Counted from the stretch's first letter, positions 4,653 through 52,208 are shown. The stretch: 64,000 nucleotides of DNA from Blasia pusilla (GCA_050084515.1 CM114271.1:19654001-19718000); one strand, 5' to 3'. Numbers and translations: made by a program. The notes: generated from the letters alone by a model not told the origin.

Positions 4653-4657
<5 letters not shown>

Positions 4658-22297: not shown

Positions 22298-22529
22298 TAG
22301 GTAATCCAAATGGGAGTCATCCATTTTAAGTCCCAACCATTTAAAACTCTTGACTAGACGTCACAAATATTTTCATGACTCAATGTACCTTCTATGACTA
22401 AATGAATGACTCTCTAAGAATCAAAAGGAATAGCAATGACTCCAAGAGTCAAAGTTATGATCATCTAGTCATGAAACGCTTACGAGTCGTTAGCTCTTGA
22501 GTCATAAAATTGGGTATTTCCTTCTAGTG
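22298..22529 (+). mobile_element. Right end of a second CACTA element (subterminal repeats and terminus)
   Basis: ATGACT/AGTCAT motifs, ending gtcataaaattgggtatttccttcTAGTG, paralleling the terminus at 15501. Confidence 0.75.
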
Positions 22530-25166: not shown

Positions 25167-25169
25167 GAG

Positions 25170-27940: not shown

Positions 27941-30900
27941 ATGCAGCAAGTGTTGGGGAGTTACCAGCTGTTTCGTCCTGGGTCGGCTAATTTTCGATAC
28001 TCTGTGTCGCCTTCAGCTCCACAGATTCGGAAACTGGCAGTCATGCCGGGCGGCACCGCAACGAAAGCGCCGAGTTTGCTATTCCGTCAGCTCTTCGAGA
28101 AAGAATCGTGCACCTACACTTACCTCCTGGCCGATATGAGTGATGCAGAGAAGCCCGCAGTGGTGAGTCTAAAAGATATTCTCTCCATTCTCCAAACTTC
28201 AAAGAAGAGAACTGCCACTCTTTAGGGAGCAAAGAGAGCCTATCTGTGAGCGATGTTACAGAGACCAGAGGCTCTTGGTCGAGGATTTCACGCATCCAGA
28301 CAGCTGCCATTTCACACATAGTTATGACTGAATCATCCATTAGCTCACCCGATGATAATCTCGAAGATCTCTTACGTGCCGTGGTGCTTCTTTTCAATAT
28401 CCGTCGGTGTCGATGATTGAATCGGAAACGTAGACTGGATGTACCAGATGCATTATATGGAGCACTGGGTGGAACCAGCTGTGAAAGTCTCGCAAGAAGA
28501 TATCAAGCCTTTTTGACTCGCGTTGTAATTGTTAATGACAACTCTGATTTCAGGGTTCTGTTCAAGCAGTAACTGTTTTCTTTCAGACTTGCTTGGGCTA
28601 ATCCCACAGGTTAATCTGTCTAGGTAGTTCGCAATCCTAGCCTTGAAGCCGAATGCTGTGGAGTAAATAAATGAGATGCTCGTGTCGTTGCTAGAACACT
28701 TTTAACGCAAGACTTTGCTCAGAGGGGCATGGCAATCGAGGCGATCTTCAGACCATGGAACATGTGGCATGAGAGGTTAGGACCGTGAAATTAGGACCTT
28801 CTCTCCATGCATCAGGCTCCCTCGAAACGCCTGAATCCTACCACATTCTCTCAATTGCACTCATAGTCCTTGAAGTGAAGCCTGATGTACATGACTTTAA
28901 AACCTGAGACAATTGGTGGTTACTTGTGGGGTGAATTTAGGAGTATATTTGAAAGAGAAGTGGGAAATGTAAGGTCGACAGTTCATGTCTCATGAATGGT
29001 TTTTGTGGTCCATGTGCAGCTCGTTGATCCTGTGGATCGTACTGTGGATAGGGATTCAAATCTTGTGAGAGAATTGGGCCTGAAGTTGATCTACGCTGTA
29101 AATACCCATGTGCATGCAGATCATGTCACAGGAACAGGTCTTTTGAAGGTATGCTTCTTGTAACTGGGAAGTCTTAGTAGTTAGAGGGAAGTCTTAGTAG
29201 TTAGACTGGTCATATGCAGACCTTCGTCTCATAAAACTTAGCAGAAGGATTGGTTGGCATGGAGTGGTAAAGCTGTTTGCTTTCATTCTCATGATCCCAG
29301 TGACATTCATGGTATTTTTTTCAAGAAGGCCATGCGGCTTGTGAAGTTCAGATGCATCATATTTGTTGGTCAGTTATTTCGAAATTATGTGCTCTGCAGA
29401 GTAAAATACCTGGAGTCAAATCTTTGATATCCAAAGCGAGTGGTGCAAAAGCTGATGAGTATGTGTCTCATGGAGACAAGATTCAGTTTGGTAGCTTATA
29501 TCTGGAGGTGGGTATGAACACGGTCTGTTGTGCCGGATGCTAATCTTGAATTTCTGCAAGATTTATTTTGGAGAGTGTAAGTTTGCATCATGTCAGACAG
29601 CACTTCACTGAAAAGAATTGAATGCCAGAGTAATGATTTGGGCTTGAAAGTTGTGTGAGAAAAAGGAGATGGTTGAGGTATGGCACTGATGCATCACAAG
29701 TGGTTATGACACCTGGGTGTGCAGGTCAGAGCGACTCCGGGTCACACTGAAGGATGTGTAACATACGTGACAGGAGAAGGGCCTGGTCAGGTCTCCCCAC
29801 GATTGGCATTTACTGGTGATGCTCTTCTGATTCGTGGATGTGGACGAACAGACTTTCAAGTAAGCTTGCAATATTTTAGAAAACGGCGTCAGGTCCGTTA
29901 CCTTGTCTGATTCCAAGCGGTCACTAACCCGTCACTCACTAATTGTCTATCCATAACAGCAGTCAAAAACCATAACAATGGTCATGGAAATAGTTCGGGA
30001 ATACTTCTTGCTTTCAGTATTTTGTGGTTATCCAAAGGATGTCCTTCCATTGTCGGGTCTTATCATCAGTGTCTGGAGGGATTGCAAATCTCACTTTAGC
30101 TTTTTCCTTTGGTGGTACCAATGAAGAATCCCAATCTGAGTGCCAAGTGCAGGAAATGTTTTTGTGTTAAGCTCTGAATCTAATTTCGGTATTTTGATGG
30201 ATCATCAATTTTGTCAGGGAGGAGATACAGCAGAGCTTTACAAGTCTGTGCATACACAGGTAGTCCTTTGTGTTTGAAAATTTCAGCCACTTTGTGTTTT
30301 ATACCTCCAAATTTCATTCAGGACAGGAAGCGTACATGATCTTAGGTTTCGAAGCTCCCATGGTTCCAGGGCGTGGAGAGGAGAGTGAAACTGATGGTTG
30401 GGGCCTAAAACTCTGTTTTTCCTGTAATAATTCCTGCTTCTCATACTATGTCTACTTCTCTGTAATAATTGAATCCAATTTCTTTCTTGCACTTGTGACG
30501 ATCAGTAGACTTCTCTACTGCTAGATTTTGCTTAATGCAGCTGCATGACCTGTCCTGCATTAGAAGGTGTAGGGGTGTAATAGGGAATGGACTTTAGTGT
30601 GCTTGCATGTCCTTAAGTGTCAACAAGCTTACTAATCATTCATTTATCTTGTGTTGGGCCATCAGATATTCTCTTTGCCATCAGAAACGTTTTTGTACCC
30701 TGCGCACGATTACAAAGGTCAAACGGTAAGTTATCTTCTAGTCTTATACTTGATATTTCTCATGCATGAAATTCTTCTGAAATAGTAATCTTCCCTTCCT
30801 CCCATGTCAGTGAAATTTGGTTCCAACAAATGCACCCATGACCGGGGGACTAGAGGGCCTGATAAGCATTTGTAGTTTGAGTAAGCTGCATTGTTAGTTA

Positions 30901-31442
30901 AGTACTTGAGATACAGAGTTTCTGATCAATTTGCAGGTAACTACTGTTGGTGAGGAATTGGTGTTCAACCCACGGCTTACCAAAGACTTGGTAGGTAGAC
31001 TCTACCCATTGAGATGAATAGATTGATTCCTTCATATCCTATTTAGCTTGGAATAGACCATCAATTTTCAGAAAGGAGTATGGTTGGTGTTGTAACCTGA
31101 ATAAACGAGTGGCTTCTTTTTGTGGACCTTCAAATTGGGCTTCAATGACACTAACAGAAAAGTTCTGTTTTGGTACAGGAGGATTTCAAGACCATCATGG
31201 CGAGTAAGTGTCTCCTCTGTGAGCTCCATCTTTGTGGTAGACTTGTCAATAAATTTCCAAGTGGTTCTTTGAATAAATTGTGTTGGTTGTCTTCTACCAA
31301 ATGTCGTAAAGTTGAGACTGCTGTGCTGCTTGTGTGGGTAGATCTGAACCTGGCATACCCGAAGATGATAGATGTTGCCGTTCCAGCAAACATGAAGTGT
31401 GGGTTCCAAGATGAGGAGGTGACAGGGAATACTTCGCTGTGA
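27941..31442 (+). CDS. ETHE1: Persulfide dioxygenase ETHE1 / glyoxalase II-3 (metallo-beta-lactamase fold). Exons 27941-28162, 29020-29148, 29400-29507, 29725-29859, 30218-30259, 30666-30725, 30937-30990, 31179-31203, 31342-31442
   Basis: Spliced reading is open with all introns [96 protein letters not shown]. The start codon is uncertain (27941 or 28043). Confidence 0.95.
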
Positions 31443-32350
31443 AGCCTAGCTCTGGTGAATTCCAATCTAATGTTAAGCATTTGAATGAATATCAGATCTA
31501 TCTTGTCTGTGGCTTCATAGCACTCGGTAATTCATTACTGTAAACCTTTCAACACATCGTCCTCATATATCAACTAGTGTGACCACTCGAAATTAATGCA
31601 ATGTGGAAATGCACAAGGGCCTACTCAAACACCTGAAGTAAAATGAAAGTGTGGTGGTACCATAGAAGTCAAGTGTGGAGATTTGTGCCCTGATATGCAA
31701 CCACACAGATCAGGAATTAGAAGTGGAGGCATCTCACACTAAAGCAGCACTTCGGCCGGCCTGGGTGAGTAAGGCACTTAAAAGCATATGCCCATGATAC
31801 ATGACAACCCTAAAACTTAGAAATTCCTCCACATTTGAAACAAACTTTGGGTTGATTTGTGGATATGGAGATGCCCCTTAAAGATGGCTATTTCCAAAAC
31901 TCAAGTTTTCACTTGCTTTTCAAACCAAAGATCTGTTTCTTAGAGTGGGAGCGAAGATGATAGTAGAGTTTGCAAAATTAGCTTGTAGCATGATTTGAAT
32001 AGGTTTCCTCTTTCTGAGAATTTGAAGAAGTAAAGATGTTTGTATACTCACTAAACATTCAAACAAAGTCACCGGAATATGATGATTTAAATGCAGGATG
32101 TCTACAAATGTCATTCGACTGGTAATGGCCTTTCTTTAATTTAGTATCAAAGCTCTCTAAATTAATCTTCATTTGAATAATATTTTCCATTCATTTCGGA
32201 TCTTCTAAAGAACCTTGCATTAAGATCGGAGATTGGGGAAATATCTTTTGGGATAAAGAGTGTTTAGCCTTGTCTCACAAGTGATGGCCCTATCGATAGA
32301 AAAAGGATGCGACGCACACAGCATAAAAGTTGACATTAGGTTCATAGAGT

Positions 32351-32755
32351 TGTCACGCTTTTAAGGATAGATCGATGAGTTTATAGTAGATTTCTTTTGA
32401 GGATACTGAAGGATAGTCTCAAGAGATCGAGGATGACCTAATGAGGCCATAGGTGATCCGAGAGAGCAGGTCTCCCCTTCGCTTTGGCTGATTTGGACCT
32501 ATATAAAGACACTCACTATTTTGGGTCAATTATCGTTACGAGTAGAGTCAACTTATCACTTTGGGGAGCGGCCCTTGACTTTTTACAATAGGTCAAGAGC
32601 CAAGGAGGTGACATGCAAGCATAGTTACCACAGAGAGAGCTTGGGAGAGAAAAGGGGGTATATCCGAGGACAGAGTTTTGGAACTCATTCTCTCTTTGTT
32701 GAACTTCTTGGCATGATGCGGCGGAGCCATGGTCCTCCTTGCCTTGTGAGTAACC
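32351..32755 (+). mobile_element. Truncated, diverged A repeat of the DNMT-Gypsy family
   Basis: Starts TGTCA; shares ggtcaagagccaaggaggtgac and ctcattctctctttgttgaac with the other A copies. Confidence 0.8.
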
Positions 32756-33285
32756 ATGGTTGCACACGGACAAAGTTCGTGTCCACTGACATATCCATGC
32801 TCGGGGACTTGTGCGGGCTCAAGTATTCGCGATTTGCACCTGATCCCGCCCGGAGCCTTTTGCGTAGATCCGGGGCTAACAGAGCCCGCATCCGTTGCGT
32901 GGTCCGTAATCAAGCCCATAAGGAGGGCTTCCTCCCCATTGGGCAAGCTCAAGCCCGTGCAGGGCTTGCATGGCTAGTTTGGGGTGGGCTGGGAGCCAAC
33001 ATAGGGCCAGCACATCCAGTTAGGGGCCCGAGCAGGGCCCCTGTGGCAAGCTCGTGGTAAGCGGGGAGCCCGTCCCCAGCCCGCCAGGTGGGCCCTATGC
33101 AAGGTCCTAGCCCGCCATGCAAGCATGAGCTCGCCCAATGGCGAAAAAGCCCGCCCTACGGGCCCGGTTGTAGGCCACGCAACGGGTGCGGGCTCGTCAG
33201 CCCGAGTCTATGCAGTGGGCTCTGGGTGGGCTCAGATGCGAGCAACAAACATATATGTCGACATATCTGTTTCCGTGCAACCTCG
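32755..33285. mobile_element. GC-rich MITE-like element with imperfect terminal inverted repeats
   Basis: Begins catGGTTGCACacgga and ends tttccGTGCAACCtcg; interior rich in GGGCC/GGCCC/AGCCC motifs; no TSD confirmed. Confidence 0.5.
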
Positions 33286-33287
33286 TG

Positions 33288-34140
33288 TGTCGTGCGCCTA
33301 CTCTCCTAATATGTAAATCTTTAGTGTTACGGAAGCGTGCGTTCAATAAGACACACTCTCATTGTTGATCGACATCCAAACACGCATTCACGTTAGTCGG
33401 GTGTGCGTCAATGAGCGTTCCATCTCACCTATCTCTCGACTCGGCCTCTCGTCAAGCTCAACCTTCCTTGTTTCTCACTTTATCACACGGCCAAATCTCT
33501 CAAGACTTGAGACATAATTTCTAGTCGCTCCTAGAACCTCAAACGGGTTTGCACGCCTCGCGGTCCCAATTGTCCAATGGACTTCCACTTAGTCCCTAAT
33601 CGAGACTGACTTAAAATGAGTCACAAGTTGGAATCCAAGTGTGGCTTTTGAAATCCACTCCCTTTGATCAGTTTTGGGTTTTAAATCTCAATACCAAACC
33701 CTCGTTCTATTCGGTGCCCTTGAGCTGCCGTATGGCGTCCCAAGGTGGGGTTTGGGTCCCAAGAATCCTTGGAGACACTCCCCCTTACTAGTTCTTCTGG
33801 GGAACTCCTCCCTCCCTCTAACTTTGGGGAAAAGACAATCGTTCTTCTCATTTTGGCCCTCAATCTAACTCCCTATATAGTCATTTTTGGCCAATATCTC
33901 AGCCTCTGTTGGTGTATTTCCTAAGTTTTTTGTGAGTTCAAACCGGATTTGCATAAGCTTTCTAACGCCATCTTATTTATCCCAAATCCATCTTTGTACT
34001 TAACGTTATGGTTCAAAATACAATCAAAACTCCAAACGCTAATCGTGTTCTAGATCTGATTCTTTGGCAACCAACCTTCCTAGACTCTATTCATCTCAAG
34101 TCTTGGTTCACATTTGATCCAGGTCTCCTAATCATGACCA
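33288..34140 (-). mobile_element. LTR of the same chromovirus-type family as 22530-23139, reverse orientation
   Basis: 33288-33899 is the reverse-complement homologue of 22530-23139; extension to 34140 is inferred. Confidence 0.8.
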
Positions 34141-34141
34141 T

Positions 34142-35908
34142 TGTTGTGCGAATATACATCGCTATTATCGAACACATACTATCCCATGCTAACTCATGGC
34201 ATCCTTACACAGAGGCAAGAAATACCAAAATATCTCCAATAAAGTAAGATCCAATCTCTCTCTACACCATCTTACACCATAGATCTCAAAGGTGTGCACT
34301 CTCTCTCATGTCAAACCAAACCCACTCTCCTAATGAGAGGCTTGGGTTACACTCAGAAGGCAAGGGACCATAGCTCCGCCGCCTTATGCCAAGAGGTTCA
34401 ATAAAGAGAGAATGAGCTCTCAAGCTCTGTCTCTTGGAGGTATACCCCCTTCCCTCTCCCAAGCCCTCTCAACGGTAAACTATGCTTGCAGGTCATCTCC
34501 TTGGCTCTTGATCTGGTGTAGCGGATCAAGAGTCAATTCCCAAAGTGGAAAGTCAACTATCCCTAATATGGAAACTTACCCGAAATAGTAAGTTTCTCTA
34601 TACGGCTCCAAATGAGCCGAAACGAAGGGAAAATCTGTTCTCTCAGGTTTCCCGCGGCCTCAACAGATCATCCTCGACCTCTTGGGCATGTCCTCCACTA
34701 CTCGTGCAGACGCTCTGCTAGATCCCACCGATCTATCTTAACAGTCGTGACAATTTTCGTGCGCATACACATCGCTACACAACATACATTGTTGTCATCG
34801 AAGACACACACAAACACAAACGATCCCATGCTAACTCATTGCATCCATACACAGAGGCGAGAAGTACCAAAATATCTCCAATCGCCCTCCTAGCTGGTGG
34901 TTAGGTCCCTCTAACTCCAAATAGCCCTCTATCCCTACCTACCACGATATACATCTCTAGGACGCTAAGAGCAGAAAGGCCGGGTGCTCATGTGGCCCCA
35001 TCGTTAGTCGCCTTCCTATCATCCACGTCACAGAAAAAGTTGGAATCAAAACCTACCTAGTATCTCCTCTATGTACATCTGGGACACATCCATCGTCCCC
35101 AAGGAACCCTAGTGAGAGGTGGCGTCAGACATGCCATATGCCAACCTCTCGAACATCCATCACAGACTAGCATCGTGGCCGCACCAGGAGCAGAACCACA
35201 CAACATACAATGCAAACCTGTAGGAACTACTGCTAAGCTTGGATCTACTGCACCATCAATATTAGGAAGGTGACATGGCGCACAATTACGCACATGGTCC
35301 TTCGATACCATACCATTGCGTCCCTCCAGCAAGAGAACACCGGATGGCAAAACATCACGCACTCTCAAGATAGTGCGCCCTGTAGTCACATCCAACATCT
35401 TCGGTGTCGTCTGCTGCAAGTAGACATAATCTCCTTGATGAAACTTCCGGGTAGTTGGTCGATAACCACCACCCCGAATAGTTGCATACCTCAACGTATC
35501 CCGATGCTGCGCAATCGCCAAGTTCTCGAACGACATGGGCATCACTCTCCAAAACAACTCAGCCCTCTGAGAACATGCTCACATCCATACATCTGGGTCA
35601 TCAAGATCCAGCACCTGACTAGCATCTTGACAAATGGCTGCAGCTAAATTTGGCTCACGGCCATGAAGTAGCAAGTACGGTGAAAAAGACGCTAAGGATT
35701 CCTGCCCGCTGAATCTATATCCCATCGCCAACCACGGCAATTGGAGGTCCCAATCTCCTAGGTGACCTCTCTGCAAGCCATACTTGCGTAAACCCCTCTT
35801 CACCGTCTGCACAACTCTCTCCGCTAATCCATCTGCCTCGGGATGATCTTGCAAAGTCGTGCGGTGGTCGATCAACGCCTGATCACACAAGACTTGGAAC
35901 TCACCGCG
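34142..35908 (-). mobile_element. 3' part of a DNMT-Gypsy family copy: INT-PHD, 3' UTR, B1 (34755-34882), A2 (34241-34752), B2 (34142-34240)
   Basis: Integrase HPEADGLAERVVQTVK; intact PHD CMLC...CDGC...H..C...WMCPRC (35069-35210); repeat boundaries read directly. Confidence 0.9.
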
Positions 35909-35909
35909 A

Positions 35910-36835
35910 ATGTATGTGGTTTAGGAGACATAGACCTGTGTGGGATGTCGGGAGTTGAGGGTAGGTTGTTGATGAGATGATAGCCTGGTCGATTTTCCGC
36001 ACCACGCCGCGTGTTGCCGCACGTTACACGTCTGGGGGAGGGAGAGTGTAGATCGAGTGTCGCATGTTTGGGATGAGAGATTGAGGGATTACTCACGAGA
36101 TTGAGAGTGATTGTGTGAGAGGGGCACGAGGGCCATCACGGCGTCCTTTTGGGATTTTGAGAGGCGAGGTGGTGAACCCGAGAGTAGCTGTGGAGGGTTT
36201 ACCCGAAGTGGTGCAAGGTTTCGAGGGTCTCAACGTGAGGGACCACCTCAACCTCCTTGTGTGTCATCGTCACACAAGAGGGAGGGTGTAGAGGAGTTTG
36301 TGAGCACATCGCCACACATTGTGAGTGGTCCTACCAGTTGGGCGTACAAGATGGACGACCAGGGTAGAGGACCGCATAGGTTTTCAGGTGCAGTAGGCAC
36401 GATTCAATTTCACGATTTCATGGCAGAGTTTAGGAGTAGGTGCAACTCCTAGCGGGCCAGAAACTCTAGAGAGTTCAACCGTTTACATCATGGAATGGTA
36501 TGTTTTAGCATTTAGAGAGGGCGCCCATGGACGATTTCCATGAGTTCTCCCACAGATATGCCCAGGAGATTGAGGCATGGCGACTCTACTATGACCCACA
36601 CTATGTGTCATGGACGGAGCCGTTCCCAGATGAGGAGGAGGAGTCAAGAGAGGCTACTTCCTCTTCCACTAGTGATGTTTTAGGAGGGGTCACTCACACT
36701 GGAGTTGTTGCACCATCTAGTCGAGTTCGTCCCAGGTTCAACGCCGTGGTTGAGTTCTTCGCTGAGTTGAGGGCCAACTACCAAGGGATACGCACGGAGA
36801 AGTTGCGGAGCATCCACGACTTCCAGAGCCGAACC
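35910..36835 (+). mobile_element. Inverted 5' UTR/gag fragment of the same family
   Basis: GPTSWAYKMDDQGRGPHRFSG and MDDFHEFSHRYAQEIEAWRLYYDP match the gag at 20534-21163. Confidence 0.85.
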
Positions 36836-37031
36836 TAAGCTTCTCCGATTGCAGGGTTTTGGAGTTAGGGTCCATTTTTGGATCCCATCCAAAGATGTCC
36901 ATCTTACATTCACATATTTTCTCTAGCTACGATGACCGTAAATTGAGTTATTCAAATTATTCACAAAAATCCCTTTGGTATAGATTTTTATGGATATGTT
37001 GAAAGATCTACTATATCATACAGATCTACTA

Positions 37032-37183
37032 TATCATGCGCATATATATCGTTGTCACTGAATACACACACAAAGTTAACACAAAAGATACCATACTAAC
37101 TCACGGCATCTAAACATCTTGTACCAAAATATCTCCAATAAATCATGATCTCTCAAATACCTCTCTTAATGTGCATACAACTA

Positions 37184-37276
<93 letters not shown>

Positions 37277-38510
37277 ATGAGAGTATTGGGTTACTCGTAA
37301 CGTAAGGAGGACCATAGCTCTCCCGCCTCATGCCAGGAAGTTCAAAAAAGAGATAATGAGTTCAAAAAGTGCTCCCTCCTTGGTTATACCCCCTATCCTC
37401 TCCCAAGCACTCTCCATGGTAACCTATGCTTGCATGTCACCCTCGACCTCCTCGATTAGGTTTTCCTCCAATATCCTCAAAGACGATCTACTATAAACTC
37501 GTCTATCTATCCTAAAAGACATGACATCTGTCGTGCGCATACACATCGTAGTCAACGAATATGCATACAGACACACAAGATACCATACTAACTCATGACA
37601 TCTAAACATCAAGACGATAAAGTACCAAAAAATCTCCAATCTCACCCTAGCTGGTGGTTAGATCCCTCTAACTCCATATAGTCTTCTATCCCTACCTAAC
37701 TCGACACACATCTCTAGGATGTGACTAAAGGACGCACCATCTTGAGAGTGCAAGATGTCTTTTCATCTGGTATTCTCCTATTGGAGGGACGCGATGGTAT
37801 GGTTTGGAAGAACTATTTGAGTAAATGTGCGTCATGTCATCTCCGTAATATTGATGGTATAGTTGACTTGAGCTTAGTAGTAGTTCTTGCATGCTTACAT
37901 TTCATGTCGTGTGATTTTTCCCGTGATGCAAATGTGATGGATGTTTGAGAGGATGGTACATGGCATGTTTGACGCTACCTCTCATTTCCCTAGATAAACA
38001 TATAGTAGATACTAAGTAGTTCTAGATCTCGGTGTATGTTTCTGACATGGATGACAAGAAAGAGACTAACGATGGAGCCACATGAGTACCAAACCTTTTT
38101 TCTTGTCTGCTACAAGTAGACCTTGTCTTCCTGATGAAACCTTTGAATTCTCGATCAATAACCATCTCCCCAAATAGTCGAATAACCACCTCCTTGAATA
38201 AGTTCTCAAACACCATGAGCATAACCCTCTAGAACACCTCAGCTCTCTAAGAACATGCATATGCTCATATCCATACACCATGATCATTGAGATTCAACAT
38301 CTCACTCGCATTGTGATGAATGATTATAGGTAAATCATGCTCTCAACCATAAAGCAACAAATATGATGAGAAAGATAACAAAGATGCATGCCTACTATAG
38401 CTAGCATCTGTATCCCATCGCCAACCATGGCAAGTGTAGGTCCCAATATCCTATGTGACCTCTTCGTAAGCCATACTTACGTAAACCTCTCTTCACCGTC
38501 TGCACAACTC
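37032..38510. mobile_element. Rearranged 3' end of another copy: B2 37032-37139, A2 37140-37526 (with a CT tract), B1 37529-37640 on minus; inverted PHD/3' UTR piece 37721-38090; integrase piece to 38510
   Basis: Homology to 34142-35908; the B1/A2 junction reads gcgcacGACA-ga-TGTCA on the minus strand. Confidence 0.82.
37186..37273. repeat. (CT)n microsatellite expanded inside the A repeat
   Basis: Read directly. Confidence 0.95.
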
Positions 38511-38780
38511 TATCATGTCTTTTAAGATGGATCAATGAGTTTATAGTAGAGTGCCTTTGAGAGTTTTAGAGGAAAACCTCAAGAGGTCAAGGATGATGTA
38601 TATGCTAAGGCCATGGGAAATCTAAGAGAGCATGTTTTCCCTTCGTTTCGACTCATTTGGAGCTATATAGAGAAAAATACTATTTTGGTAAGCTAACGTT
38701 ATGAGTAGCGCTTTGGGAAGTGGTCCTTGATCCCTTACAATAGATCAAGAGCCAAGGAGGTGACCTATGAACATAGGCTA
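38511..38780 (+). mobile_element. 5' part of an A repeat interrupted by a Copia LTR
   Basis: tatcatgtcttttaagatggatc...gatcaagagccaaggaggtgac matches the A repeat up to 38780. Confidence 0.75.
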
Positions 38781-40106
38781 TGTTGGAAATCAAGAGTTTG
38801 GGATGATGTTCCCCATTCAGTGGCTCATGGAAGTACTCACGGGAGCAAGAGCTGCTTGTTAGGATGTTTTGTAGTACAATTTTTTATACGGAAGAGTGGC
38901 GTGTGGAAGGGTTGCCCAATTGCTTTTGGAGGATTTGAGTATGGGGATGGATTTCTCCACGCTTGTACTCTCAAGATCATCTTGTATCTTTTTTGTGTAG
39001 GTTGCATGATTTCTTAGTTTTTTGGGTGGAAGAAATGAGGGGGGAAGTGCTGCCTGATTTTTCATAGGAGAGGAGGCCATGGGTTGTATGAGAGTTGTCG
39101 CCAGTTTCTAATGGAAGGTCAAATGAGTATCAAGAAGTTGTGCATATTGTCAAAGATAAAACGTACGATTTGGACATCTAAGCACGAAGTTTTGAGTATT
39201 TCCAACTTTCCATGGCTGCCTTAGCCAACTTTTGAAGGAAGGAGCAATTTCAAAAAATTTGGTTAAATTCTTAGTTGAGAGGTAGAAAAAAAAAGTAAAA
39301 ATTGGTTTCATCTTAGTGCATAGGATAAGGGGAAAAAGTGATTTGAGTTTAAAGTCAAGTGGAAACTTTATTTAGTGGATGATGATCCAAGATTTATGGG
39401 ACTTTATGGAGTATTAGCCAAAAGTGAGATAATTTTAGTGAGTTGATGTAACCATCTGTTGTTAGTCATAGTTAAGTTAGAGTCTATGACATGTAGCGCA
39501 TAAGTGGGAAAGAACAAGTCAAAAAGAAAGAAGACAAAGAACATGAGATAAAGATGAGAGTAGGGTCATATGTAGGTGGAAAGTAAGATAAGGATGAGGT
39601 TGGAGGTAGATGTGATAAGATGAGATAGGAATATCAGAGTCCAAATAAGATCCTCTAATAATATGAGAATATGACACGTGGTATAAGGATGGGTAGAACT
39701 ATTTTTTCTTCATTGTTCCTATCTCTAAGTATATAAAGGAAGAGAAGACTTGGGAGAGGCCTTAAGGGGCATTCTACCTTTGAGGAATTCTAGAGCGATC
39801 TTATGAGATTGAGAGTTACAATGGTATCAAAGTAAGGTTGCTCTTTTGACAAGAATGGATTACCCCTCTTGGAAGAATAATCAAGTAATGTATATTATTG
39901 AGAGTTAAATAGGCTTGTTAGAGATTGGTAGTGCCTCTAACAAGCCTATCAAACACTAAAACCTAAACCCTAAACTCTTTACTTAGAGTGTTTGGATGCC
40001 CTATTTATGTTCATATTCAAGAAGATGAGAGGTCTAAGTTAGATCCAAAGGCTAGAAAGTGCATCTTTCTAGGATATTAAAAGGGAGTGAAAGGATATAG
40101 ATTGTG
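38781..40106 (+). mobile_element. Ty1/Copia remnant: 5' LTR 38781-39820, PBS, internally deleted pol fragment
   Basis: TGTTGG...TTACA; PBS tggtatcaaag at 39822; LRVFGC..YVHI...[23 protein letters not shown] at 39980-40106. Confidence 0.8.
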
Positions 40107-43100
40107 CGGGAGGGGGTGCTTGTTATGAACAACTCCCCTACGTTGAGAGATGTAACATGGCGGAGGAGAGCGTAGCCACCATGGATTCTGGGCAAGAGCA
40201 GTCACGATTGGTTGCACCACCTGTGCAGCAATGTGGACTCCGAGATAGATCGATTGTGGCACCACAAGCTCAAGGAGCATACCGGGAGGTTGTGCCACAG
40301 AGACCTGCGCCTTCATATGCGGCTCAGCAGCAGCCGCCTACGATTACTTGTTGCTCATGTGGTGGAGCCCATCATAAGCGCGATTTCACTCGTCAGGGTC
40401 ATGGACGTGTGCCTTAGCATGGAGGAGGAGATGGTGTTGCACCAGGAGATTATCAGTGTGACTATTGTCAGAGGTATGGTCATACACGCGCTAGGGATTT
40501 CAGTTTATATCCTGAGTTACATCCAGATTGAGGGCCAAAGAGGGCACCGAAGCGAGTAGCCGGTCCGGGTGGGCCTAGTGATCTTGCACCAGGTGGTCCC
40601 GTTGGAGGATGAGGAGGTGGAGTTGCCCGCCAGGGTGGTAAAGCTGCCCATGGAGGAGGAAGAGTCCCACCACCTAGACGCGTCAAGGGAGACGCCGGTT
40701 GTGAAGCTGGGATGGCTGCTCAGATAGAGCAGCTACAAGAGCAAATTGCCGTTATAGCATTGAGGTTACCCGATGCCGGATCCGTGGCATCGACATTATA
40801 CGGAGCAACCAGAGATATGGAGGATCCAGGTTTGATGTGCGGGGTTGCCTAGATGGAGGCCGCCATAGCTATGACACGTGGAGCAGCCGCAGAATTGGAT
40901 CCATAGCGAGGGAAGCCAGGAAACATACTAGGCTTCCTCAGTCTTTCACGTTGTTCGAAGCGATGAGGACCCCATGGATGGGTCCTGATCAAAGTTCTTA
41001 GAGAGTTGGTGATGTTGTTGGTGTGCAAGCAGGGAGGGCGATGAGAGAAGTGAGTGTGACGACCCCTATTGCTGATGCTCAGGAGGGGCATGTGTCGAGC
41101 ACGTTGTTGGGGGTGGCCATCATCGTGTACCGCACTCTTTATTTTCTGCTTTCAATGTTATGAAGTTGGGGGGTACGCCCGCCGAGGTTTTTCGGCTGGC
41201 CGCTACACTCTGTGAGCGTGGAGTTGGAGTTCTTGCATCACGTTCATAGGTGATTGCAGAGGAGGTGATGAACCTACCCTTGGAGCGGATGCTCGGGCCG
41301 TCCATATCAGATTCATGGCAGGCTGCGGATGCTAGAATGGCGGAGATGCCCGCTAGACCCGCGATAGAGTGTGCCATGGCTTCTCCTGATGTTGTGTTGC
41401 TGGATAACCAAGCAGAGGTCTTCCAGTTGGTGAGTCCCGCAGGTAGAGCTTTTAGTCTGCACCACGTCTTGTTGGATTCAAGAGCGCAACACCTGATGTT
41501 GGGGAAAGCGTGATTCAGAGGATTGGGCTTGACGAGAGCCGATGTGGAGTGTTTTCCATTCCGGATACAAATATCCTTGGGTGGAGCGAGTACCACACAG
41601 TATATCACCCGACATGAGGTCGTGGTGAGGATTCACTTGGGACATCCTACAGATGAGTCCGCGGTGCGAGCCAAGGTGATAGGGACTGATGTAGAGTCCT
41701 GCGACGTCTTGGTTGGTGGAGCAGTGTTATACCCCATGGGGTTTTCGTGGATTATTGGGAGTAGTCAGTATCCTACAGACTAGGATGGCAGTCAGGTGAT
41801 GGGCGCCTTAGCTCATTACCCGTTTGATTCACAGATGTAGTGATCGAGCGACGGCCAGAAGAGATGGCGACCTTAGCAGCATTTAGCAGTGCTATCACTT
41901 GGCCTAGTGATTTGATTGAGGGACATGTCCATGCAAAGGATACTTCCAATCCTGACATTTCTATGCAAAGGAGTTTCATGGTAGCCGCATCAGTGCGTGG
42001 AGGAGAGATGCCGCTTTGGGGCTCGACTGAGGAGCTTCAACGCTTAGCCATTGAGCATATGCAAACCGCGTGGAACGAGACGTTTGCACCTGAGAGTGAT
42101 GGGTTAGAGGAACCCCAAGTATGCAATAGTGCTGCTATGAACCCTTTGGATACCACCCCGATTGCGTGGTGCATCCCAGAGAAGGGTATTCGGGTGTTGG
42201 ATCTCTTTGGAGGGATCATCACTAGGTTAGCTAATATTTTGGATGCGGGAGTGCGCGTGCAGCAGTTCCTGTATGTGGAGATTGCTAATGTTGCAAGGCG
42301 CGCTTCACTTCACCATGTGGGGCTGTTACGCCTACGTTTTCCCGACTTGTTGTCTGCGTCCGCCATTCAGGGTTACCAAAGTTCCCTACCGAGGGACATT
42401 TCATTGTTAGGGGCCCTAAGTTAACAGGAGGAGAGTGGTACCGGATACACCAGTTCCTTAGGAGTTATAGGAGCTATTTTGCATTTAGTATGCATGATTT
42501 GGGTACGCTAAAGGGTCCAGGAATCCGCATTGAGTTGTCGAGTGACACGCCGATCTTCCGATGATCCTACAGGTACAGTGAGATGGAGAGGGCTCTGATT
42601 CAGAGTAGGAGCCAAGACTTGCTTGGAGTAGAACTAGTGGAGATGTCCATAGAGAGTATGCATCTACCATTGTCATGCCCTCCGAGAAGGATGTGCATGG
42701 CAACTGGACGGATAGGCAGATGTGTGGAGATTACCAACCTATCAATCGGCAGACAAAGTCCGATAGGTATGCCATGCCCACCCGTGAGGAGATCTTTGAT
42801 GCGATTGGGCATGCAAAGGTCTTCACTTCTTTGGATTTGCAAGCCAGATACCATCAACTGCCTATCAGATTGGAGGACAAGCATAAGACAGCATTTTGGG
42901 GCATAGATCCTCACGGGAAGGATTGTTTGTACCAGTGGCGGTTCTTACCATTCAGGTTAAAGAATGCCCCGGCTGAGTTTCAAAGGGTCATGGATAGGAT
43001 CTTTGCAGGTCTGGAGTTTGCTAGGTGTTATATTGATGACATCGTAGCTAGTCTTTAGCGCCACGGTTGAGAAGCATGAGCGACATCTAGAGGAGGTTTT

Positions 43101-46100
43101 TCGATGATTGCAGTTACATGGGCTAAAGCTACATCCAGGCAAGTGCAAGTTCTTCTATGGCCAGATTGAGTACGTGGGTCATATGATATACCCAAGGGGC
43201 CTTGGTGTGCAACATAAAAAGGTAGAGGCTATTTCACGCATTCCACGCCCTACAGATGTGAGTCGAGTTCGTGCATTGATGGGATTAGCGAGCTTCTATC
43301 GACGGTACGTCAAGGCTTCAGTTCGATTGCAAAGCTGCTAACCTTGATGACCAAGAAGGATCAAGAGTGGCACTGGGGGGATGAGCAAGAGAGAGCATTT
43401 CAGATGCTCAAGGACAGATTGATATCCGCGCCCATATTGAGGAGATCGATGAGGGGGTGTCCTTTCCAGTTGCATACCGATTGGAGCATGTTGGGGCTTG
43501 GAGCCGTGCTCACCCAGCATGACGATGATGGTAGAGAGTTTGTGGTGGCTTACGTTAGTTGCTTGAACAATGGTGCACAGGCGAAGTATAGCTCGTATGA
43601 GGGTGAGTGCTTGGCTGCAGTGTGGGCTGTCGCACATTTTAGATGTTATCTATTCGGCAATCCCTTTACCATCATTGCTGATCATCAGCCACTTAAGTGG
43701 TTGATGGAGTCCAACAAGCTTATAGGGAAGCTTGCCAGGTGGGCTCTTTTGTTGCAAGAGTATGTCTTCTAGGTGGTGCATAGACCTGAGACGCTCAACC
43801 AAGATGCAGATGGTTTGAGCCGTAACCCATGCCCGAGTCAACGAGATACGATTGGAGCTCGTTGGCATGGTGAGAGTGATGAGGAGTTGGTGCCAGGATG
43901 GCACGCGTCAGCCTATTTGGGCTTGTTGGCTATGGAGAGCTAGATTGCTGAGACTTCCATGGCGAGGTCTGATGGAGAGTCCTTAGATCTAGAGGCCGGT
44001 GAGGAGGAAACAAGTGGCCGAGATATTCACGATGATGGAGTGGTCTTGGAGTACCTACGTACTGGCAGCATCGCGAGCACAGTGGGTGCTAGAGAGCGGG
44101 ATTGGATCCTACAGCGAGCCATACGGTTCCGATGGGAGGGCACACATGTGTTGCGAGTGTGGGAGGATGGTAGAGTGCATGTAGTGCCTCATCCTTTGTA
44201 GAGAGCACGTTTGGTGCATCATGCCCACAAGGAGTTGGGTCATTTTGGAGTGAAGCACACGTACAGCTTGGTCCAGATTCAGTATTGGTGGCGAGGCATG
44301 CAGACTGACGTTCAGCAATTTGTTGCTGGATGCATAGTGTGTGATCAAGTCCGAGCATTGTTCAATGCTCTCCAAAGTTGCATCCACTTCCAATCATGGG
44401 TTTAGGTTATAGATGGAGTTTGGATTTTGCAAGACCTTTGCCTATGACGGAGCGTGATAGTCGTTATGTGTTGGTGATGGTCGAGCACTTCTCGAAGTGG
44501 ATAGAGTTGGTTGCATTCCCTGACAAAGCAAGTGAGGGAGTAGCGTATGCCTTCCTAGATTGAGTGTTGAGCAATTATGGCACACCAGCTGAGGTGTTGA
44601 CAGACCAGGGTACACAATTTCGAGGGGAGTTTCAGGCCTTGTGTGATTAGGCACTAATCAACCACTGCACTACTTCGCGAGATCATCTTGAGGCGGATGG
44701 ACTAGCAGAGCAAGTTGTGCACACGGTGAAGAAAGGACTACGTACGTATCGCTTGCAGAGAGGTCACCTAGGAGATTGGGACCTTCAATTGCCGTGATTG
44801 GCGATGTGATACAGATTCACCAGGCGGGCATCCTTAGCGTCTTTCTCACCGTACTTGTTACTTTATGGCCGAGAGCCAAATTTACCTATTGCCATTGGTC
44901 AAGATTTTGGTGAGGTGTTGACCCTTGATGACCTTGATGTATGGATGTGAACATGTTCTCACAGGGCTGAGTTGTTTTGGAGAGTGATGCCAATGGCGTT
45001 TGAGAACTTGGCGATTGCGCAACATCGGGATACGTTGAGGTATGCGACTATTCGGGGAGGTGGTTATCGACCCACTATCCGGAGGTTTCATCAGGGAGAC
45101 TATGTTTACTTGCAGCAGACAGCACCCACGATGTTGGATGTAACTATAGGGCGCACCATCTTGAGAGTGCATGAGGTTTTACCATCCGATGTTCTCTTAT
45201 TGGAGGAACACAATGGTATGGTTTGGAAGGACCATGTGCGTAACTATGCGCCATGTAATCTTCCGAACATTGACGGTATAGTTGATCCCAACTTAGCAAT
45301 AGTTCATGTTGGCTTGCGGTGTATGTTGTGTGGTTTCGCCCATAGTGCATCCACTATGCTAGTCTGTGATGCGTGTTCAAGAGGATGGCATATGGCATAT
45401 TTGATGCCACCTCTCACTAGGGTTCCTCAGGGACGATGGATGTGTCCCAGATGTACATAGAGTAGGTAGTTCTACATTCCGACCTGTGTCTATGATATGG
45501 ATGACAGTAAGACGACTAAAGATGGGGCCATATAAGCACCCGGCATTCTTGCTCTTAGCGTCCCAGAGATATATGTCATGGTAGGTAGGGATAGATGGCT
45601 ATCTGGAGTTAGAGGGACCTAACCACCAGCTAGGGGGGCGATTGGAGATATTATGGTACTTCTTGTCTTGTTTTTTGAATGCCATGAGTTAGTATGGGAT
45701 CGTGCGTGCTTGTGTGTGTATTCGGTGACAACAATGTATGTTGTGTAGCGATGTATATACGCATGAAAACTGTCACGTCTTTTAGGATATATCAATGAGA
45801 TCTAGTAGAGCGCCTTTATGAGTAGTGGAGGACAGGCTCAGTAGGTCGATGATGACTTGCTAAGGCCCCGAAAAACTTGAGAGATTAGTTTTCCCTTTCG
45901 TTTCGGCTCATTTGGAGCCATATTGAGGAACTTACTATTTTAGATAAGTACCATTTTGAGTATATGATAGACTTTCTATTTTTGGTAAGTGGCCCTTGAC
46001 CTCTTACATTAGGTCAAGAGCCAAGGAGGTGACTTGGGAGCATAGGTTACCATGGAGAGAGCTTGGGAGAGGGGAGGGGTATACCTCAAGGAGAGAGAGC

Positions 46101-46405
46101 TTGAGAGCTCATTCTCTCTTTGTTGAACCTCTTGGCAAGAGGCGATGGAGCTATGGTCTTGCTTGCCTTGTGTGTGTAACCCAAGCCTCTCATTAGGAGA
46201 GTGGGTTTGGTTTCACATTGAGAGAGACATGTGAGAGTGTTCACATGTGAGAACTATAGTGTTGTGAGAGAGATTGTATCTTATTTGATTGGAGATATTT
46301 TGGTACTTCTTGTCTCGTTGTTTGGATGCCATGAGTTAGCATGGAATCGTGTGTGTGTTCGGTGACAGCAATGTATGTTGTGTAGCAATGTGTATGCGCA
46401 TAAGA
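40107..46405 (+). mobile_element. DNMT-Gypsy copy 2: partial gag-PR-DNMT(N-half)-RT-RH-INT-PHD-B1 (45641-45768)-A2 (45771-46287)-B2 (46288-46405)
   Basis: Protease VLLDSRAQ; IRVLDLFGG; RT CYIDD near 43030; RNase H HTDWS...DHQPL; integrase WSLDFA; PHD 45316-45460. Confidence 0.92.
42187..42414 (+). pseudogene. DNMT motifs I-III; the rest of the domain is deleted
   Basis: IRVLDLFGGIIT...FLYVEIANVARR...LPRDISLLG, followed directly by the pre-RT linker. Confidence 0.88.
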
Positions 46406-48481: not shown

Positions 48482-51400
48482 TTGCCGTAGAAAGAATGTG
48501 AGAATCTCAGGTTTGCTGAAAACAGAGAGCGAAGAGGTGAAGAGTGTTGTCACCAAGTTCTTGGTTGATACACTTCATGTTCATAACCCGGACTTGGCTC
48601 AAGCTTTCCGTATTGGGAAAACGGGCACACAACCTCGTGTCATTCTAGTTAAGTTTGTTGATCAAACTCAACGTGATACTGCCATGGCGAACAAGGCCAT
48701 TCTCAAAGGACGGAGGATATGGTTGGATCGTGATCTCACACCTCTACAAGTCGAAGCTAGGAGAAAGGAGCTTGCAAAGGTCAAAGAGGCTCAAGAAGCA
48801 AGTTTTATTGCTTATCTACGCGATGGTTAAGAAATTGTTACCCAGAGAAAAAGAGAGTGATCAACCTAGCAATCCAAGAAGCTGAGAGTGTTGATGTGGA
48901 ATATACAAGGCCTTTCAACAACAAAGTATGTGAGTGCTCTACCAATTTGGGGGATGGCGAATATCATCAATATTGTGGAGACTTGGGAACATGAGAGCAA
49001 TAATATTGCAGAGGTGGAAGGGTTTACTTTGGTGGGATCGACATGGAATCAAAGAAGGCAACGGGCAGGAAGGGGTTATGGCGGTATTGCTACTTTCATC
49101 AGGTCTCAATTTCTACCTCTCATACATCTAGAAGATCAAGATATCGGGGGCCAATATCATTGGCTACGTCTTGGTTTGGTTGGAGGATCTTATTGTTATT
49201 TGGCAGTTTGTTATTTTGGACCACTCTCCATGTCTATCTACTCAACACGCACTCATAATCGAAGTCAACCGTTCCATCAACTTATTGGGGATGTTCTCAA
49301 ATATCAAAGCAAAGGTGAAGTCTTTCTAGTTGGAGATTTCAATGCTCGCACACGTACTCCTCAATTTACCCAATTCAGTGATTCCTTGATTTCTCCTCTT
49401 CTCGAAGAACATGAGGATGGTTTGTGGTCTAGAATCTCTTCAAATCTTTCTAGAAATCCTTTGACATAGCATTTTTTAACCTTCGGAGCCACTTGTAATT
49501 TGAAAGTTCTTAATGGAACCTCTCATTTTCCCAACTCTCACTCCAATACGTGTTTCTCCTCTACCGGCGCTAGCACCATCGATTATCTTCTATCCTCGCC
49601 CGCTAATAGCTCTCTTATCTCTACATTTGATATTCTAGAACCTCAGCCTGAATCAGATCATGCACCTCTTTTGTTTACTCTCTCACTGTCAAAGCCAACT
49701 CCTCTCTCGACATGTCAATCTATTTAAGCTTCTCCCAAGTTTCGCTTAGATCCTGGTAAAAAAGATCTTTATACGCTATATTTACAAGAACTCTTGACTC
49801 GCATTGTATGGAGCCCAGATCCAAACACGGCAAGTATGCAACTAACCGAATTGCTCAAAAATAGTGCATCTAAGTTCTTTTCGCGCCATAGGGATAGAAG
49901 TGCTAGGAGGCTGCCTTGTAATGGATGGTTTGACTCTGAATGCAAGCAAGCAAGGGCACGATGAGTTGATAAATCTTTGGATATCCCAAGTCGGCTTATT
50001 ATGACGAGCCTTTACAAATACTTGGTGAAATCTAAGAAACGAGCTTTCTTGCGGCGGAAACAAGAGTCCTTGACAAGGGAGCTGCATGAGGATCCCAAAT
50101 CATTTTGGAGACGGTTAGTAGTACGGTCTTCAAAACCTATTCTTGATCCCAAGTCTTTGATATCTTTTGCCGAAAAGCTCTATTTCTTCCCCGATGCTAC
50201 ATCTATGCCACGTTGTGAAGGAATACCTGGCTTATTCTCTGAAGGCGAGGTGATGACTCAACTAAGAAGATTGGCGAATGGTAAATGTGAGGATTTGGAT
50301 GGTCTTTCTATTGAACTTTTCTAGTGGGGAGGAGATTGTATTGGACCGATCCTCACCAAAGTATTGGATGATGCTGCTATCTATGGTTTTCCTCCAACGT
50401 GGTCGCTACGGGAGATTGTTCCTATTCACAAATCAGGAAGGAAGGACTTGATGAAAAACTATCGCACTATCATGGTGGGTAGTGTTTTTGCCAAGTTGTT
50501 TGGGAAATTGGTAGAGTCGAAGTTGAGCACATGGACAGAGACTTTCCAAAAGAGAGCACGGGTCCAATCTGGTTTTCGCCCAACATACAACACCATCGAC
50601 CATATCTTGGCCTTGCGTGTTTTATGGGAGAAATCTAAGGGCAATGGAAAAGCTTTGTTTTGCGGCTTCATCGATTTCAAGAAAGCTTTTGATATTGTAC
50701 CTCGTAAGCTCTTATGGGAAAGGTTGCAAGCCATTGGAGTACCACCAAATCTCCTAGCAACCGTGGCCACGTTATACCATTCCGTTCGGGCCAAGATCAA
50801 AGGTTCAAAAACTCAAGAGATCTTGAGTACCATTGGAGTCATTCAAGGTTGCCCTCTCTCCCCTAAACTTTTTGGAGTTTTCATAGATGATATCGAAAAG
50901 TGGTTGGAGGAATGTGATAGTGAAGGTGTCAAGCTTGGGGACTTTGTCATCAAAGCTCTATTGTATGCAGATGATATCATATTACTAGCACGTGATGGCA
51001 TTAGTTTACAAAAGCACCTCGACACTTTGGCAAGGTTTTGTACCCAGAATCACATGGAGGTTAATATGGAGAAGTCTAAAGTCATTATAGTGGGTACTAG
51101 ATCCAAATTCTCGTTCTTTTACAAAGGTCTACAATTAGAACAAATGAAGAGTTATAAATATCTAGGCATCGATTTCTCTAATGACTATAGTTGGACACTT
51201 TGCATGCAAAAGAGAGTAGAAGCTGGTTACAAAGCTCTATATTCATTTTTAAACTGGTGTAGTAGAGCTCATCTTGTATCTTGGAGTCTTAGGAAATTCT
51301 TATTTAGGAGCTTAGTGTTGCCGGTGGTCTTATATGGGACCCAATTTTGGGGCCCTAGTTGTAAGAAGACAGGTTGGGAGCGCGTGGAGAGAGTGCAAAA

Positions 51401-52208
51401 GATCTTTCTACAAGAAGAATTGGGTGTAAGAAACCAAACTCCGTATGCTATTCTTCTTGCGGAAACAGGTTGTCTTCCTCTAGAAGCTGAAGCTCTTTAC
51501 TTGATCATCACTTACATTGCAAGGGTGAGATCTCTTGATCTTTCTCGCCTCCCTCATCAAGCTTTGCGAGCCACACATTCCATAGGATGGATGGCGGATG
51601 TGGTGACTTGGTCTTCAAAGTGGAATGTGGCAGAACGCGATTGGGACTTGAAACCAATGGCCCTCCGTGAGCATCTACAGAAGCAATTTCTCAATATTAT
51701 TTGGAGGAGCCGGGGCACCAAAATGGAGTTTTATCAACTTCATGTTAATCCTATGCTTGTATATTGTGAACAAGGATACCTACTTGCGGGGATCTCAACA
51801 TTTTAACGTCATATTATCGCACGACATAGAACTGGGTCTCATAGGCTAGGAATTGAGGAAGGACGATGGTTTAATATTGATAGAAGTGAACGAATTTGTA
51901 GGTTATGTGACGGAGAAAATATTGAGGATGAAGAGCATGTGTTTGTTACATGTCCAAGGTATGCAGAGATTAGACTAACTCATAAAATAGATGTGGAGAA
52001 TTTTTATTCTTTACTATAGCTAGTGCCTTATGATTTAGGTTGTTATATTAGGGACGTCATTATTTATCGCTCAAGTGCTCTAGGCTGTAGCTAGGAGAAG
52101 GTCTTAAGGATCTTTTCAGGGTCAGTGAATGAATGACTTGTAATGTGTTTTTCAGCCTTTTGACCCTTTGGGTCCCACCGGCTTGATCTATTTACCATTT
52201 ACCATTTA
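48482..52208 (+). mobile_element. 5'-truncated non-LTR retrotransposon (RTEX-like): ORF1 3' part, ORF2 APE-RT-CCHC, (TTTACCA)n tail
   Basis: ORF1 RRKNVRISGL...AFRIGK...PRVILVKF...DRDLT; endonuclease WNIQG, ETW, GDFNA, IDY, SDH; RT QGCPLSP, LLYADD; RICRLC...EDEEHVFVTC near 51890-51955; tail at 52190-52208; possible TSD CAAT. Confidence 0.9.

Follow-up and report, generated by a model that had tools for sequence, protein, structure and literature searches.

Split direct repeats on an integrase-bearing Ty3/Gypsy lineage in Blasia pusilla and a possible route of their replication

Introduction

In the textbook view, split direct repeats belong to retroelements that carry a tyrosine recombinase, and identical long terminal repeats (LTRs) to those that carry an integrase. 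A 64,000-nt stretch of the Blasia pusilla genome (GCA_050084515.1 CM114271.1:19654001-19718000; hereafter the window, with positions counted from its first nucleotide) raises the question of whether this link always holds. From the sequence alone, an original prediction had claimed that a Gypsy element with a retroviral-type DDE integrase terminates here in split repeats of the order A1...B1-nn-A2-B2 (nn, two nucleotides) and might replicate by an unusual, possibly tRNA-independent route. We found that the split layout is real and that the region is best explained as an accumulation of nested, dead copies from a single streptophyte Ty3/Gypsy lineage. How such an element could be copied and integrated is a separate question, for which we put forward a model.

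Results

Layout of the copies in the window

The coordinates of the copies were obtained by self-BLAST and direct reading of the window. Three 3' ends have one common layout: a polypurine tract (PPT), B1, two nucleotides, A2 and B2. This agreed to the base with the original prediction, and the strings at the B1/A2 junctions (GAAA-ac-TGTCA, GAAA-at-TGTCA and GACA-ga-TGTCA) were exactly as it had given them. In copy 1, on the plus strand, the PPT ctagggggg was read directly at 45630-45638, one base (c) ahead of B1 (45640-45768). This B1 is U5-like and GT-rich, shares 84-90% identity with B2, and closes with an integrase-type right end, ..GAAA (..CGACA in better copies). The spacer ac (45769-45770) lies between right-end and left-end sequences. 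The following A2 (45771-46286), which would correspond to U3 plus R, starts with TGTCACG and contains a TATA-like tataCC at about 46074-46079 and, at about 46110-46122, the predicted transcript start and self-primer CATTCTCTCTTTG. B2 (46287-46405; self-BLAST and reading) is the 3' terminus of the inserted element.

The other two 3' ends are on the minus strand. That of copy 2 (34142-34882), which is supported by reads, comprises B1 at 34882-34755, the spacer at at 34754-34753, A2 at 34752-34241 and B2 at 34240-34142; its PPT and the integrase/PHD end of its internal region occupy 34883-35944 (PHD, E = 5.8e-11; tblastn). That of copy 3 (37032-37641) comprises B1 at 37641-37529, the spacer ga at 37528-37527, A2 from 37526 to about 37141 and B2 to about 37032. 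Its A2 is shortened by an internal deletion and contains a (GA)n run. Within a copy, B1 and B2 are 84-91% identical, and the A repeats of different copies are 75-89% identical.

The 5' end is different. Element X, on the minus strand, begins with an A1 (21782-22297) that is directly followed by internal sequence; no B was found after it, so that the A-only 5' end claimed originally was borne out at 22297->21782. A solo A+B unit (TGTCATG...CGCACGACA), absent from the earlier list, occupies 14642-15270 (+) with CATT on either side (14638-14641 and 15271-15274). A fourth, more distant copy (~75% identical; 54385-58214, +) retains the end of a DNA methyltransferase (DNMT), reverse transcriptase (RT), RNase H, integrase, PHD finger, the PPT gctagggggg and one B. 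This B ends with ..CCACGACA at 58214 and non-A sequence comes next, which makes it an end of the form PPT-B|other. Tandem repeats of ~90-180 bp are present at 58478-58961, directly downstream of it.

Proteins and family membership

Open reading frames (ORFs) of the window were taken stop-to-stop and compared with Pfam, and degenerate copies were compared by tblastn with the ORFs of L034, a nearly intact relative among the loci surveyed below. In the window, Pfam recognized RVT_1, RT_RNaseH, a weak rve and a C-terminal PHD finger; many degenerate ORFs of the window and of related loci gave no Pfam match. The internal region of copy 1 (40964-45457, +) has a protease (PR), a shortened DNMT region and many stops, and its 5' part is missing or replaced. 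By Pfam and tblastn, its RT is at 42609-43055, RNase H at 43218-43769, integrase at about 43900-45300 and PHD finger at 45320-45457. The rve match at 44345-44560 is weak (E = 2.8e-4, under the Pfam cut-off), and the tblastn match to the L034 integrase is strong.

Element X (22297->15505, -) spans the gag, PR, DNMT, RT and RNase H of L034 by tblastn. Its internal region (15505-21767), with the 3' end missing, is composed of a gag-like part (21076-20549), PR and DNMT (20148-18341), RT-RNase H (18005-16469) and rearranged integrase pieces (16308-15505). The segment 18341-19139 (-) matches the DNMT region of L034 by tblastn; the Pfam DNA_methylase match in the window is weak (E = 6e-4). Copy 1 is without ~1.1 kb of the DNMT part, at 42409-42412 (+). 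Thus, versions with and without DNMT coexist in one window. Short inverted duplications of integrase/PHD-coding pieces were also noted at 15505-16142 (in element X) and 37717-37992 (in copy 3), and segments of them match copy 1 in both orientations.

The PHD-bearing ORF of the window matches integrase+PHD proteins of Marchantia (77% identity), Calypogeia and Sphagnum and many metagenome proteins, some of which carry a C5 DNA-methylase domain. L034 has two long ORFs: the first contains Asp_protease_2 and DNA_methylase (PF00145, E = 1.8e-13; DNMT was identified with this general Pfam model) and the second contains RVT_1, RT_RNaseH, Integrase_H2C2, rve and PHD. PF00145 was likewise found in L039 and P0018, and the H2C2 finger with the rve core (PF17921 and PF00665) in L034 and P0018. 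The closest solved structure to the L034 Pol is the Ty3 Gag-Pol (E = 4e-98), and its integrase part matches that of the foamy virus PFV (2e-21). The Klebsormidium nitens protein P0070 (PF00145, RT, RNase H and rve) is 47% identical over 88% of the L034 Pol, P0080 of the same species bears PHD, and Closterium proteins with a methylase domain are also among the Pol relatives. By protein matches, the lineage occurs in Klebsormidium, Closterium, liverworts and mosses.

Judged by its proteins, termini and target-site duplications (TSDs), the family is Ty3/Gypsy, with the predicted order gag, protease, C5-DNA-methyltransferase, RT, RNase H, DDE integrase and C-terminal PHD finger. The Pol order PR-RT-RNase H-integrase with a Gypsy-type RT_RNaseH was found in both the window and L034. 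The two identical LTRs flanked by a primer-binding site (PBS) and a PPT, by which Ty3/Gypsy elements are also recognized, were not found: the 5' repeat is A only, and B1, which does not start with TG, comes after the PPT.

The split direct repeats might instead suggest a DIRS/Ngaro-type element moved by a tyrosine recombinase. However, no tyrosine recombinase was found in the two long ORFs of L034, which has no other ORF of at least 170 amino acids (short ORFs lay outside the scan), the integrase is of the DDE type with an H2C2 finger, and the TSDs are 4 bp long. This explanation is refuted for the copies seen, and we regard it as very improbable. A DDE integrase and TG...CA ends were part of the original prediction and were both found, along with short TSDs, as was a split A1...B1-A2-B2 layout, otherwise known from tyrosine-recombinase elements, on an integrase-bearing family.

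Survey of related loci

We fetched 80 loci encoding integrase-PHD relatives from metagenome contigs; their protein identity to the window ORF is 47-75%. The full 3' end, PPT-B1-nn-A2-B2, was present in 27 of them, namely 24 labelled by script and three (L072, L074 and L080) reassigned by reading, in which a TA microsatellite splits B. In five loci B1-nn-A2 was then cut or interrupted, in 24 the PPT-B was followed by unrelated sequence, in six B was truncated, and in one B reached the contig end; 17 had no recognizable B, mostly with too little sequence past the match. After near-identical loci and loci with identical flanks were merged, ~18-20 distinct insertions of the B-nn-A-B form and ~19 of the B|flank form were left. 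The latter, without A2-B2, is a second genomic form in many relatives that is either real or made by assembly.

By their A and B sequences, at least four mutually non-aligning families can be distinguished (that of the window, family 1, family 2 and the L071 group), and L034 represents a further one. Among the related loci inspected and the window copies, the arrangement and the 2-nt spacer are common to all of these families, and in every related locus a G-run lies 0-3 nt ahead of B1. A layout that recurs in 27 of 80 loci and in at least four sequence-unrelated A/B families is far beyond chance. Within elements, A1/A2 and B1/B2 are equally diverged (91-93% and 94% identity in L057; 87% and 87-91% in L038), which implies that both pairs are renewed at each transposition.

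Upstream, 12 loci from 10 distinct elements had an A; together with element X, this made 11 distinct 5' ends available. All 11 read unrelated flank|A|PBS/internal sequence, with B on neither side, and the mirror form A-B-nn-A-...-B was not seen among them. The A-only end is therefore a rule and not a private deletion. These ends bear on the simplest alternative, that the LTR is an ordinary A+B unit, the A-only 5' end a private deletion and B1 a local duplication. The solo A+B unit does resemble a classical LTR, with its TGTCATG...CGACA ends and TSD. Nevertheless, A-only 5' ends with the PBS abutting the A end occur throughout four subfamilies, and B1 directly follows the PPT in all loci. The survey refutes this alternative, which is now scarcely credible.

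L034 had no visible pair of terminal repeats. Its contig reads ...PPT-B-gt-A-PBS-5' untranslated region at 8551-9317, the order of a 1-LTR circle, and reflects either an assembler's collapse of A1 and A2 or a real circular or tandem form.

Termini, target duplications and palindrome

A starts with TGTCATG (or TGTCACG, TGTCAAG) and B ends with CATGACA (or CACGACA), which gives 7-nt terminal inverted repeats. Consequently, B1-nn-A2 is a palindrome of right end, two nucleotides and left end (CATGACA-nn-TGTCATG); such a junction had been predicted, and the palindrome is perfect in most copies. TSDs were scored by comparing the four bases outside A1 with those outside the last B, and both ends were readable in eight cases. 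The 4-bp match was perfect in six: L012 (ACTA), L016 (TACA), L038 (TTTG), L057 (CATA), L070 (TGTG, which presupposes a mutated TG start) and the solo unit of the window (CATT). L004 and L027 matched at three of four positions. These TSDs delimit an inserted unit that spans A1 through B2 (A1 through B in copies lacking A2-B2) and indicate that the inserting enzyme makes 4-bp staggered cuts. The A2|B2 junction was inspected for 1-3 nt variation that might betray de novo joining. It varies (CGA, CA or TA) in family 1 and has one dominant form in whole-genome shotgun (WGS) reads, and inherited mutation fits this variation as well as de novo joining does.

Self-priming

The bases directly after A1 did not match the 3' end of a tRNA. 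In element X, the PBS ACAAAGAGAGAATG (21768-21781, -), which adjoins A1, is complementary at 14 of 14 positions to a segment within A, CATTCTCTCTTTGT (21958-21945), downstream of a TATA at 21988-21984. Different sequences were paired in the same way elsewhere. In family 1, PBS ACTCAAAGAACT and segment AGTTCTTTGAGT share 12 complementary positions in L004 and 9-10 in L012, L027 and L039, and the complementarity is decayed in L016, L057 and L070. In family 2, the corresponding pair is AATCACCAAAAGT and ACTTTTGGTGATT (13 positions in L038 and L059, 11 in L048), and in L034 it is TTGACAAGAATGTC and GACATTCTTGTCAA (14 positions). Four different pairs, each compensated, amount to covariation.

In three families a TATA box (TATAAA, TATAAT or TATATC) lies 29-31 nt upstream of the segment. 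The self-primer segment thus sits where the transcript start is expected. In the predicted leaders, from the segment to the PBS, the 5' end closes on the PBS in both minimum-energy and centroid folds (z of -3.1, -4.8 and -5.4), an end pairing that is partly present by construction. Complementarity and covariation are the signature of Tf1-type self-priming and point to it here, with the RNA 5' end placed by prediction. The tRNA-independent priming that had been suggested for this element is hence very probable.

We also observed that in L004, L027 and L039, which have a family 1 A, a copy of the PBS sequence, CTCAAAGAAC, lies ~35 to 5 nt before the predicted transcript start. Together with the self-primer segment it makes a DNA palindrome around the predicted start site, and a similar local palindrome is present in family 2.

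Sequencing reads

One WGS run and three stranded RNA runs with the same species label were mapped on window positions 21300-35100. The polarity of the RNA libraries was set by a spliced plus-strand host gene with GT..AG introns, and by this standard the RNA of the element is sense-strand. At ~1% sampling of one run, DNA depth was ~2660 on A1 and ~680 on the internal region next to it. Such a depth on A, in the thousands, implies that the family is very abundant in the genome.

The junction of A end and B start was crossed by 199 split DNA reads (92 + 107). In the three RNA runs it was crossed by 0, 2 and 0 reads, against ~32 expected from the RNA/DNA depth ratios on A (0.047, 0.077 and 0.039), in a count of split-mapped reads that leaves contiguous reads on the junction of copy 2 unseparated. 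RNA reads did cross the boundary between A and the PBS (38 and 27 loose-end reads with the PBS as their consensus), and others connected the PPT region with B1. Where B ends, ~1860 DNA reads clip into diverse sequence at a B1 depth of ~3100, which indicates that B|flank and B-nn-A junctions are both common in this genome; among the RNA reads, 37 and 22 continue past B into diverse flanks. In our reading, transcription begins in A1, passes through B1-nn-A2 and in most cases ends with A2, leaving B2 largely untranscribed.

The reads also bear on the suspicion that B1-nn-A2-B2 arose from independent solo insertions beside an element end, or is an artefact of the window assembly. Nothing speaks for it except the nested, rearranged state of the region. 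Against it, the spacer is always 2 nt and without a TSD of its own, the same arrangement is found in 27 loci of other genomes, and the junctions are present in the raw reads of an independent WGS run. This suspicion is refuted; it is next to impossible.

Discussion

A model of replication

We consider it somewhat probable that the family is a self-primed, split-LTR element whose cDNA has B-nn-A LTRs and is permuted by end joining before integration. This account draws together the layout, domains, TSDs and palindrome, the PBS complementarity with its covariation, and the sense transcripts that cross from A to PBS and rarely from A to B; its predicted parts are the sites of transcript start and polyadenylation, a cDNA LTR of the form B-nn-A, and the joining step, and the permutation itself is unproven. 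In this model, the functions of a normal LTR would be divided over two repeats. A would be U3 plus R, with the integrase left end TGTCATG, a TATA box and a transcript start ~30 nt further on, and would end where the PBS begins. B would be a U5-like piece with the integrase right end CATGACA, moved from before the PBS to behind the PPT. The RNA would span from R in A1 to the end of A2, with B2 mostly outside, and the minus strand would be self-primed as in Tf1, by pairing of the first 12-14 nt of the RNA with the PBS.

With canonical priming, minus-strand DNA would start from the A end and plus-strand DNA from the first base of B, so the finished cDNA should have B-nn-A LTRs. The TG... and ...CA integrase ends would then lie back to back inside each LTR, as CATGACA-nn-TGTCATG, and not at the tips of the cDNA. 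The genomic form A-PBS-...-PPT-B-nn-A-B can be seen as a circular permutation of this cDNA. Joining of the two termini, by circularization or by an end-to-end jump of plus-strand template, would produce the A2|B2 junction. The integrase would subsequently act on the TG end beside the PBS and on the CA with which the newly added B closes, and would thereby generate the 4-bp TSD. Retroviral integrases can cleave palindromes at LTR-LTR junctions (PMC1905944, PMC1180852).

Several points weigh against this model. Circular or longer-than-unit cDNA has no direct evidence, and no extrachromosomal form was seen. The transcript start and the poly(A) site are predicted positions that these reads do not map, no read-start pile-ups inside the element were listed in the RNA mapping, and the RNA deficit at A|B has the counting limit given above. 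The metagenome contigs are short-read assemblies in which near-identical repeats may collapse. A plain 2-LTR circle would give A-B-nn-A-...-B as often as A-...-B-nn-A-B, and since the former was seen in none of 11 cases, an asymmetric step is needed. In addition, PPT-B|flank ends (24 of 80) are about as common as B-nn-A-B ends (27 of 80), the fourth copy of the window has one, and they fit direct integration of a unit-length A...B at least as well. These ends may come directly from cutting at both internal sites, from a later exchange between B1 and B2 or, for metagenome contigs, from an assembly short-cut.

These ends leave room for a different account, in which the unit-length A-...-PPT-B is the primary product, cut at the internal palindromes of a linear B-nn-A...B-nn-A cDNA or of a 1-LTR circle. 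The form A...B-nn-A-B would then arise less often, as a by-product of, for example, 2-LTR circles, and would be the sole fertile form. Besides the similar counts and the fourth copy, this is supported by the perfect 4-bp TSDs on PPT-B|flank ends (L012, L016 and L070), by the ~1860 WGS reads that clip at the B end, and by RNA reads that run from B into diverse flanks, as expected of copies without a terminator. However, recombination between B1 and B2, or short-read assemblers skipping the A2 loop, would leave the same ends. Three of the four 3' ends in the assembly of the window are B-nn-A-B, and it would be odd for a family to have a main product unable to replicate again. We rate this account as unlikely.

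B2 is largely missing from the RNA and must be copied from B1 somehow, which speaks for another alternative, non-canonical reverse transcription. As proposed for DIRS, PAT and Ngaro, extra template switches would copy B2 from B1 and the left A1 from A2 on a linear, possibly single-stranded cDNA; the TG...CA ends would be ready and no circle or joining would be required. PAT and Ngaro, as presented in parts of two articles (PMC4157794, PMC7192593), have exactly this layout, and DIRS-1 cDNA is described in one of them as mostly linear and single-stranded (PMC7192593). However, no homology between the A end/PBS and the start of B that could guide a switch was seen in the window and related loci, and a PPT right before B1 and a PBS right after A1 are where cDNA ends made by canonical priming would be. 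Non-canonical reverse transcription of this kind seems improbable to us. Priming by a snap-back of the 3' end through the 7-nt inverted ends was also considered and dropped, since the conserved 5' self-primer would then have nothing to do and inverted repeats would be expected.

The model of self-priming and permutation can be carried one step further, as a tentative and rather doubtful proposal. The lineage might obligatorily integrate permuted cDNA, with a DDE integrase opening a circle-junction palindrome that is encoded in the genome. Split repeats would then be a property of the reverse transcription strategy and not of the recombinase, and DIRS, PAT and Ngaro could derive by a swap of the integrase. 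If true, the old circle-junction integration model would have a natural counterpart that is inherited, and DIRS, PAT and Ngaro could have arisen from such a Gypsy backbone by a tyrosine recombinase replacing the integrase at the same junction.

Apart from its mode of replication, this streptophyte lineage breaks the link between split repeats and tyrosine recombinases, and it is a possible bridge between Gypsy and DIRS-type elements. Standard LTR finders, which rely on two identical terminal repeats and a tRNA PBS, would miss or mis-delimit it. The DNA methyltransferase and PHD finger of the element may bear on the interplay of transposons with host chromatin.

Other features of the window

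An expressed multi-exon host gene occupies 26397-32051 (+); RNA reads define ten introns of the GT..AG type within 26780-31342, and read starts were recorded at 31827. Inverted repeats of 600 bp flank the gene on both sides (22529-23131 and 33296-33898, 82% identical) and may represent either the termini of a large DNA transposon or an inverted duplication. A LINE-type element (long interspersed nuclear element) at 48870-51803 (+) consists of an Exo_endo_phos ORF (48870-49466) followed by a 493-amino-acid RVT_1 ORF (50325-51803). The window starts with a tandem array (1-2219) with a period of ~350 bp and units that are 82-85% identical, and contains a perfect 90-bp palindromic stretch at 4567-4657.

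Comparison with known systems

The layout has a precedent. According to the part of the article that describes it, KnitGypsy-Dnmt3 of Klebsormidium nitens (de Mendoza et al. 2018, PMC5890265) has DIRS-like repeats in the order A-coding-B-A-B and Gypsy-type domains. It shares with the present family this repeat structure, found in the window and related loci, and a Gypsy-type Pol with an inserted C5 DNA methyltransferase, of which element X retains remnants. It differs in its charophyte host, as opposed to a bryophyte-like one here, and copy 1 is without most of the DNMT region. By sequence comparison, the family of the window is clearly related to it and appears to be the same lineage, a bryophyte branch of a known, almost undescribed kind. 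That part of the article gives no account of PBS, PPT, TSD, junction or mechanism. Beyond it we found no literature on integrase-bearing split-repeat elements, in a search mostly outside subscription journals and supplements. As far as the searched literature goes, the self-priming PBS with covariation, the 4-bp TSDs, the palindromic attachment (att) junction, B as a displaced U5 and the evidence for an untranscribed B2 are new. Through the first four of these features, with the U5-like B placed behind the PPT, a remark in the literature becomes a replication model that can be tested.

In its priming the family resembles Tf1/sushi (Tcn1) elements, whose PBS is complementary to the first bases of their own transcript and not to a tRNA; here the transcript end is a predicted one. 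Self-priming has also been predicted for the plant Tcn1 and TAR lineages, in the portion of a study that treats them (PMC6317226). The LTRs of Tf1/sushi elements are ordinary and identical and they carry a chromodomain, whereas the present family has split repeats and, where the chromodomain would be, a PHD finger.

PAT-like and Ngaro elements have the same A1...B1-A2-B2 split direct repeats, a Gypsy-related RT/RNase H and, in DIRS/PAT, a methyltransferase domain. They have a tyrosine recombinase, no TSD and a Dam-like methyltransferase, whereas the family of the window combines a DDE integrase and a C5-cytosine methylase with inverted TG...CA ends and TSDs of 4 bp.

Finally, the B1-nn-A2 junction is similar to the 2-LTR circle junctions of HIV-1 and foamy virus, where the right end (..CA), a few bases and the left end (TG..) form a palindrome that integrase can recognize and cleave internally (PMC1905944, PMC1180852). 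The retroviral junction is a by-product that arises after reverse transcription, whereas here it is encoded in every genomic copy and inherited.

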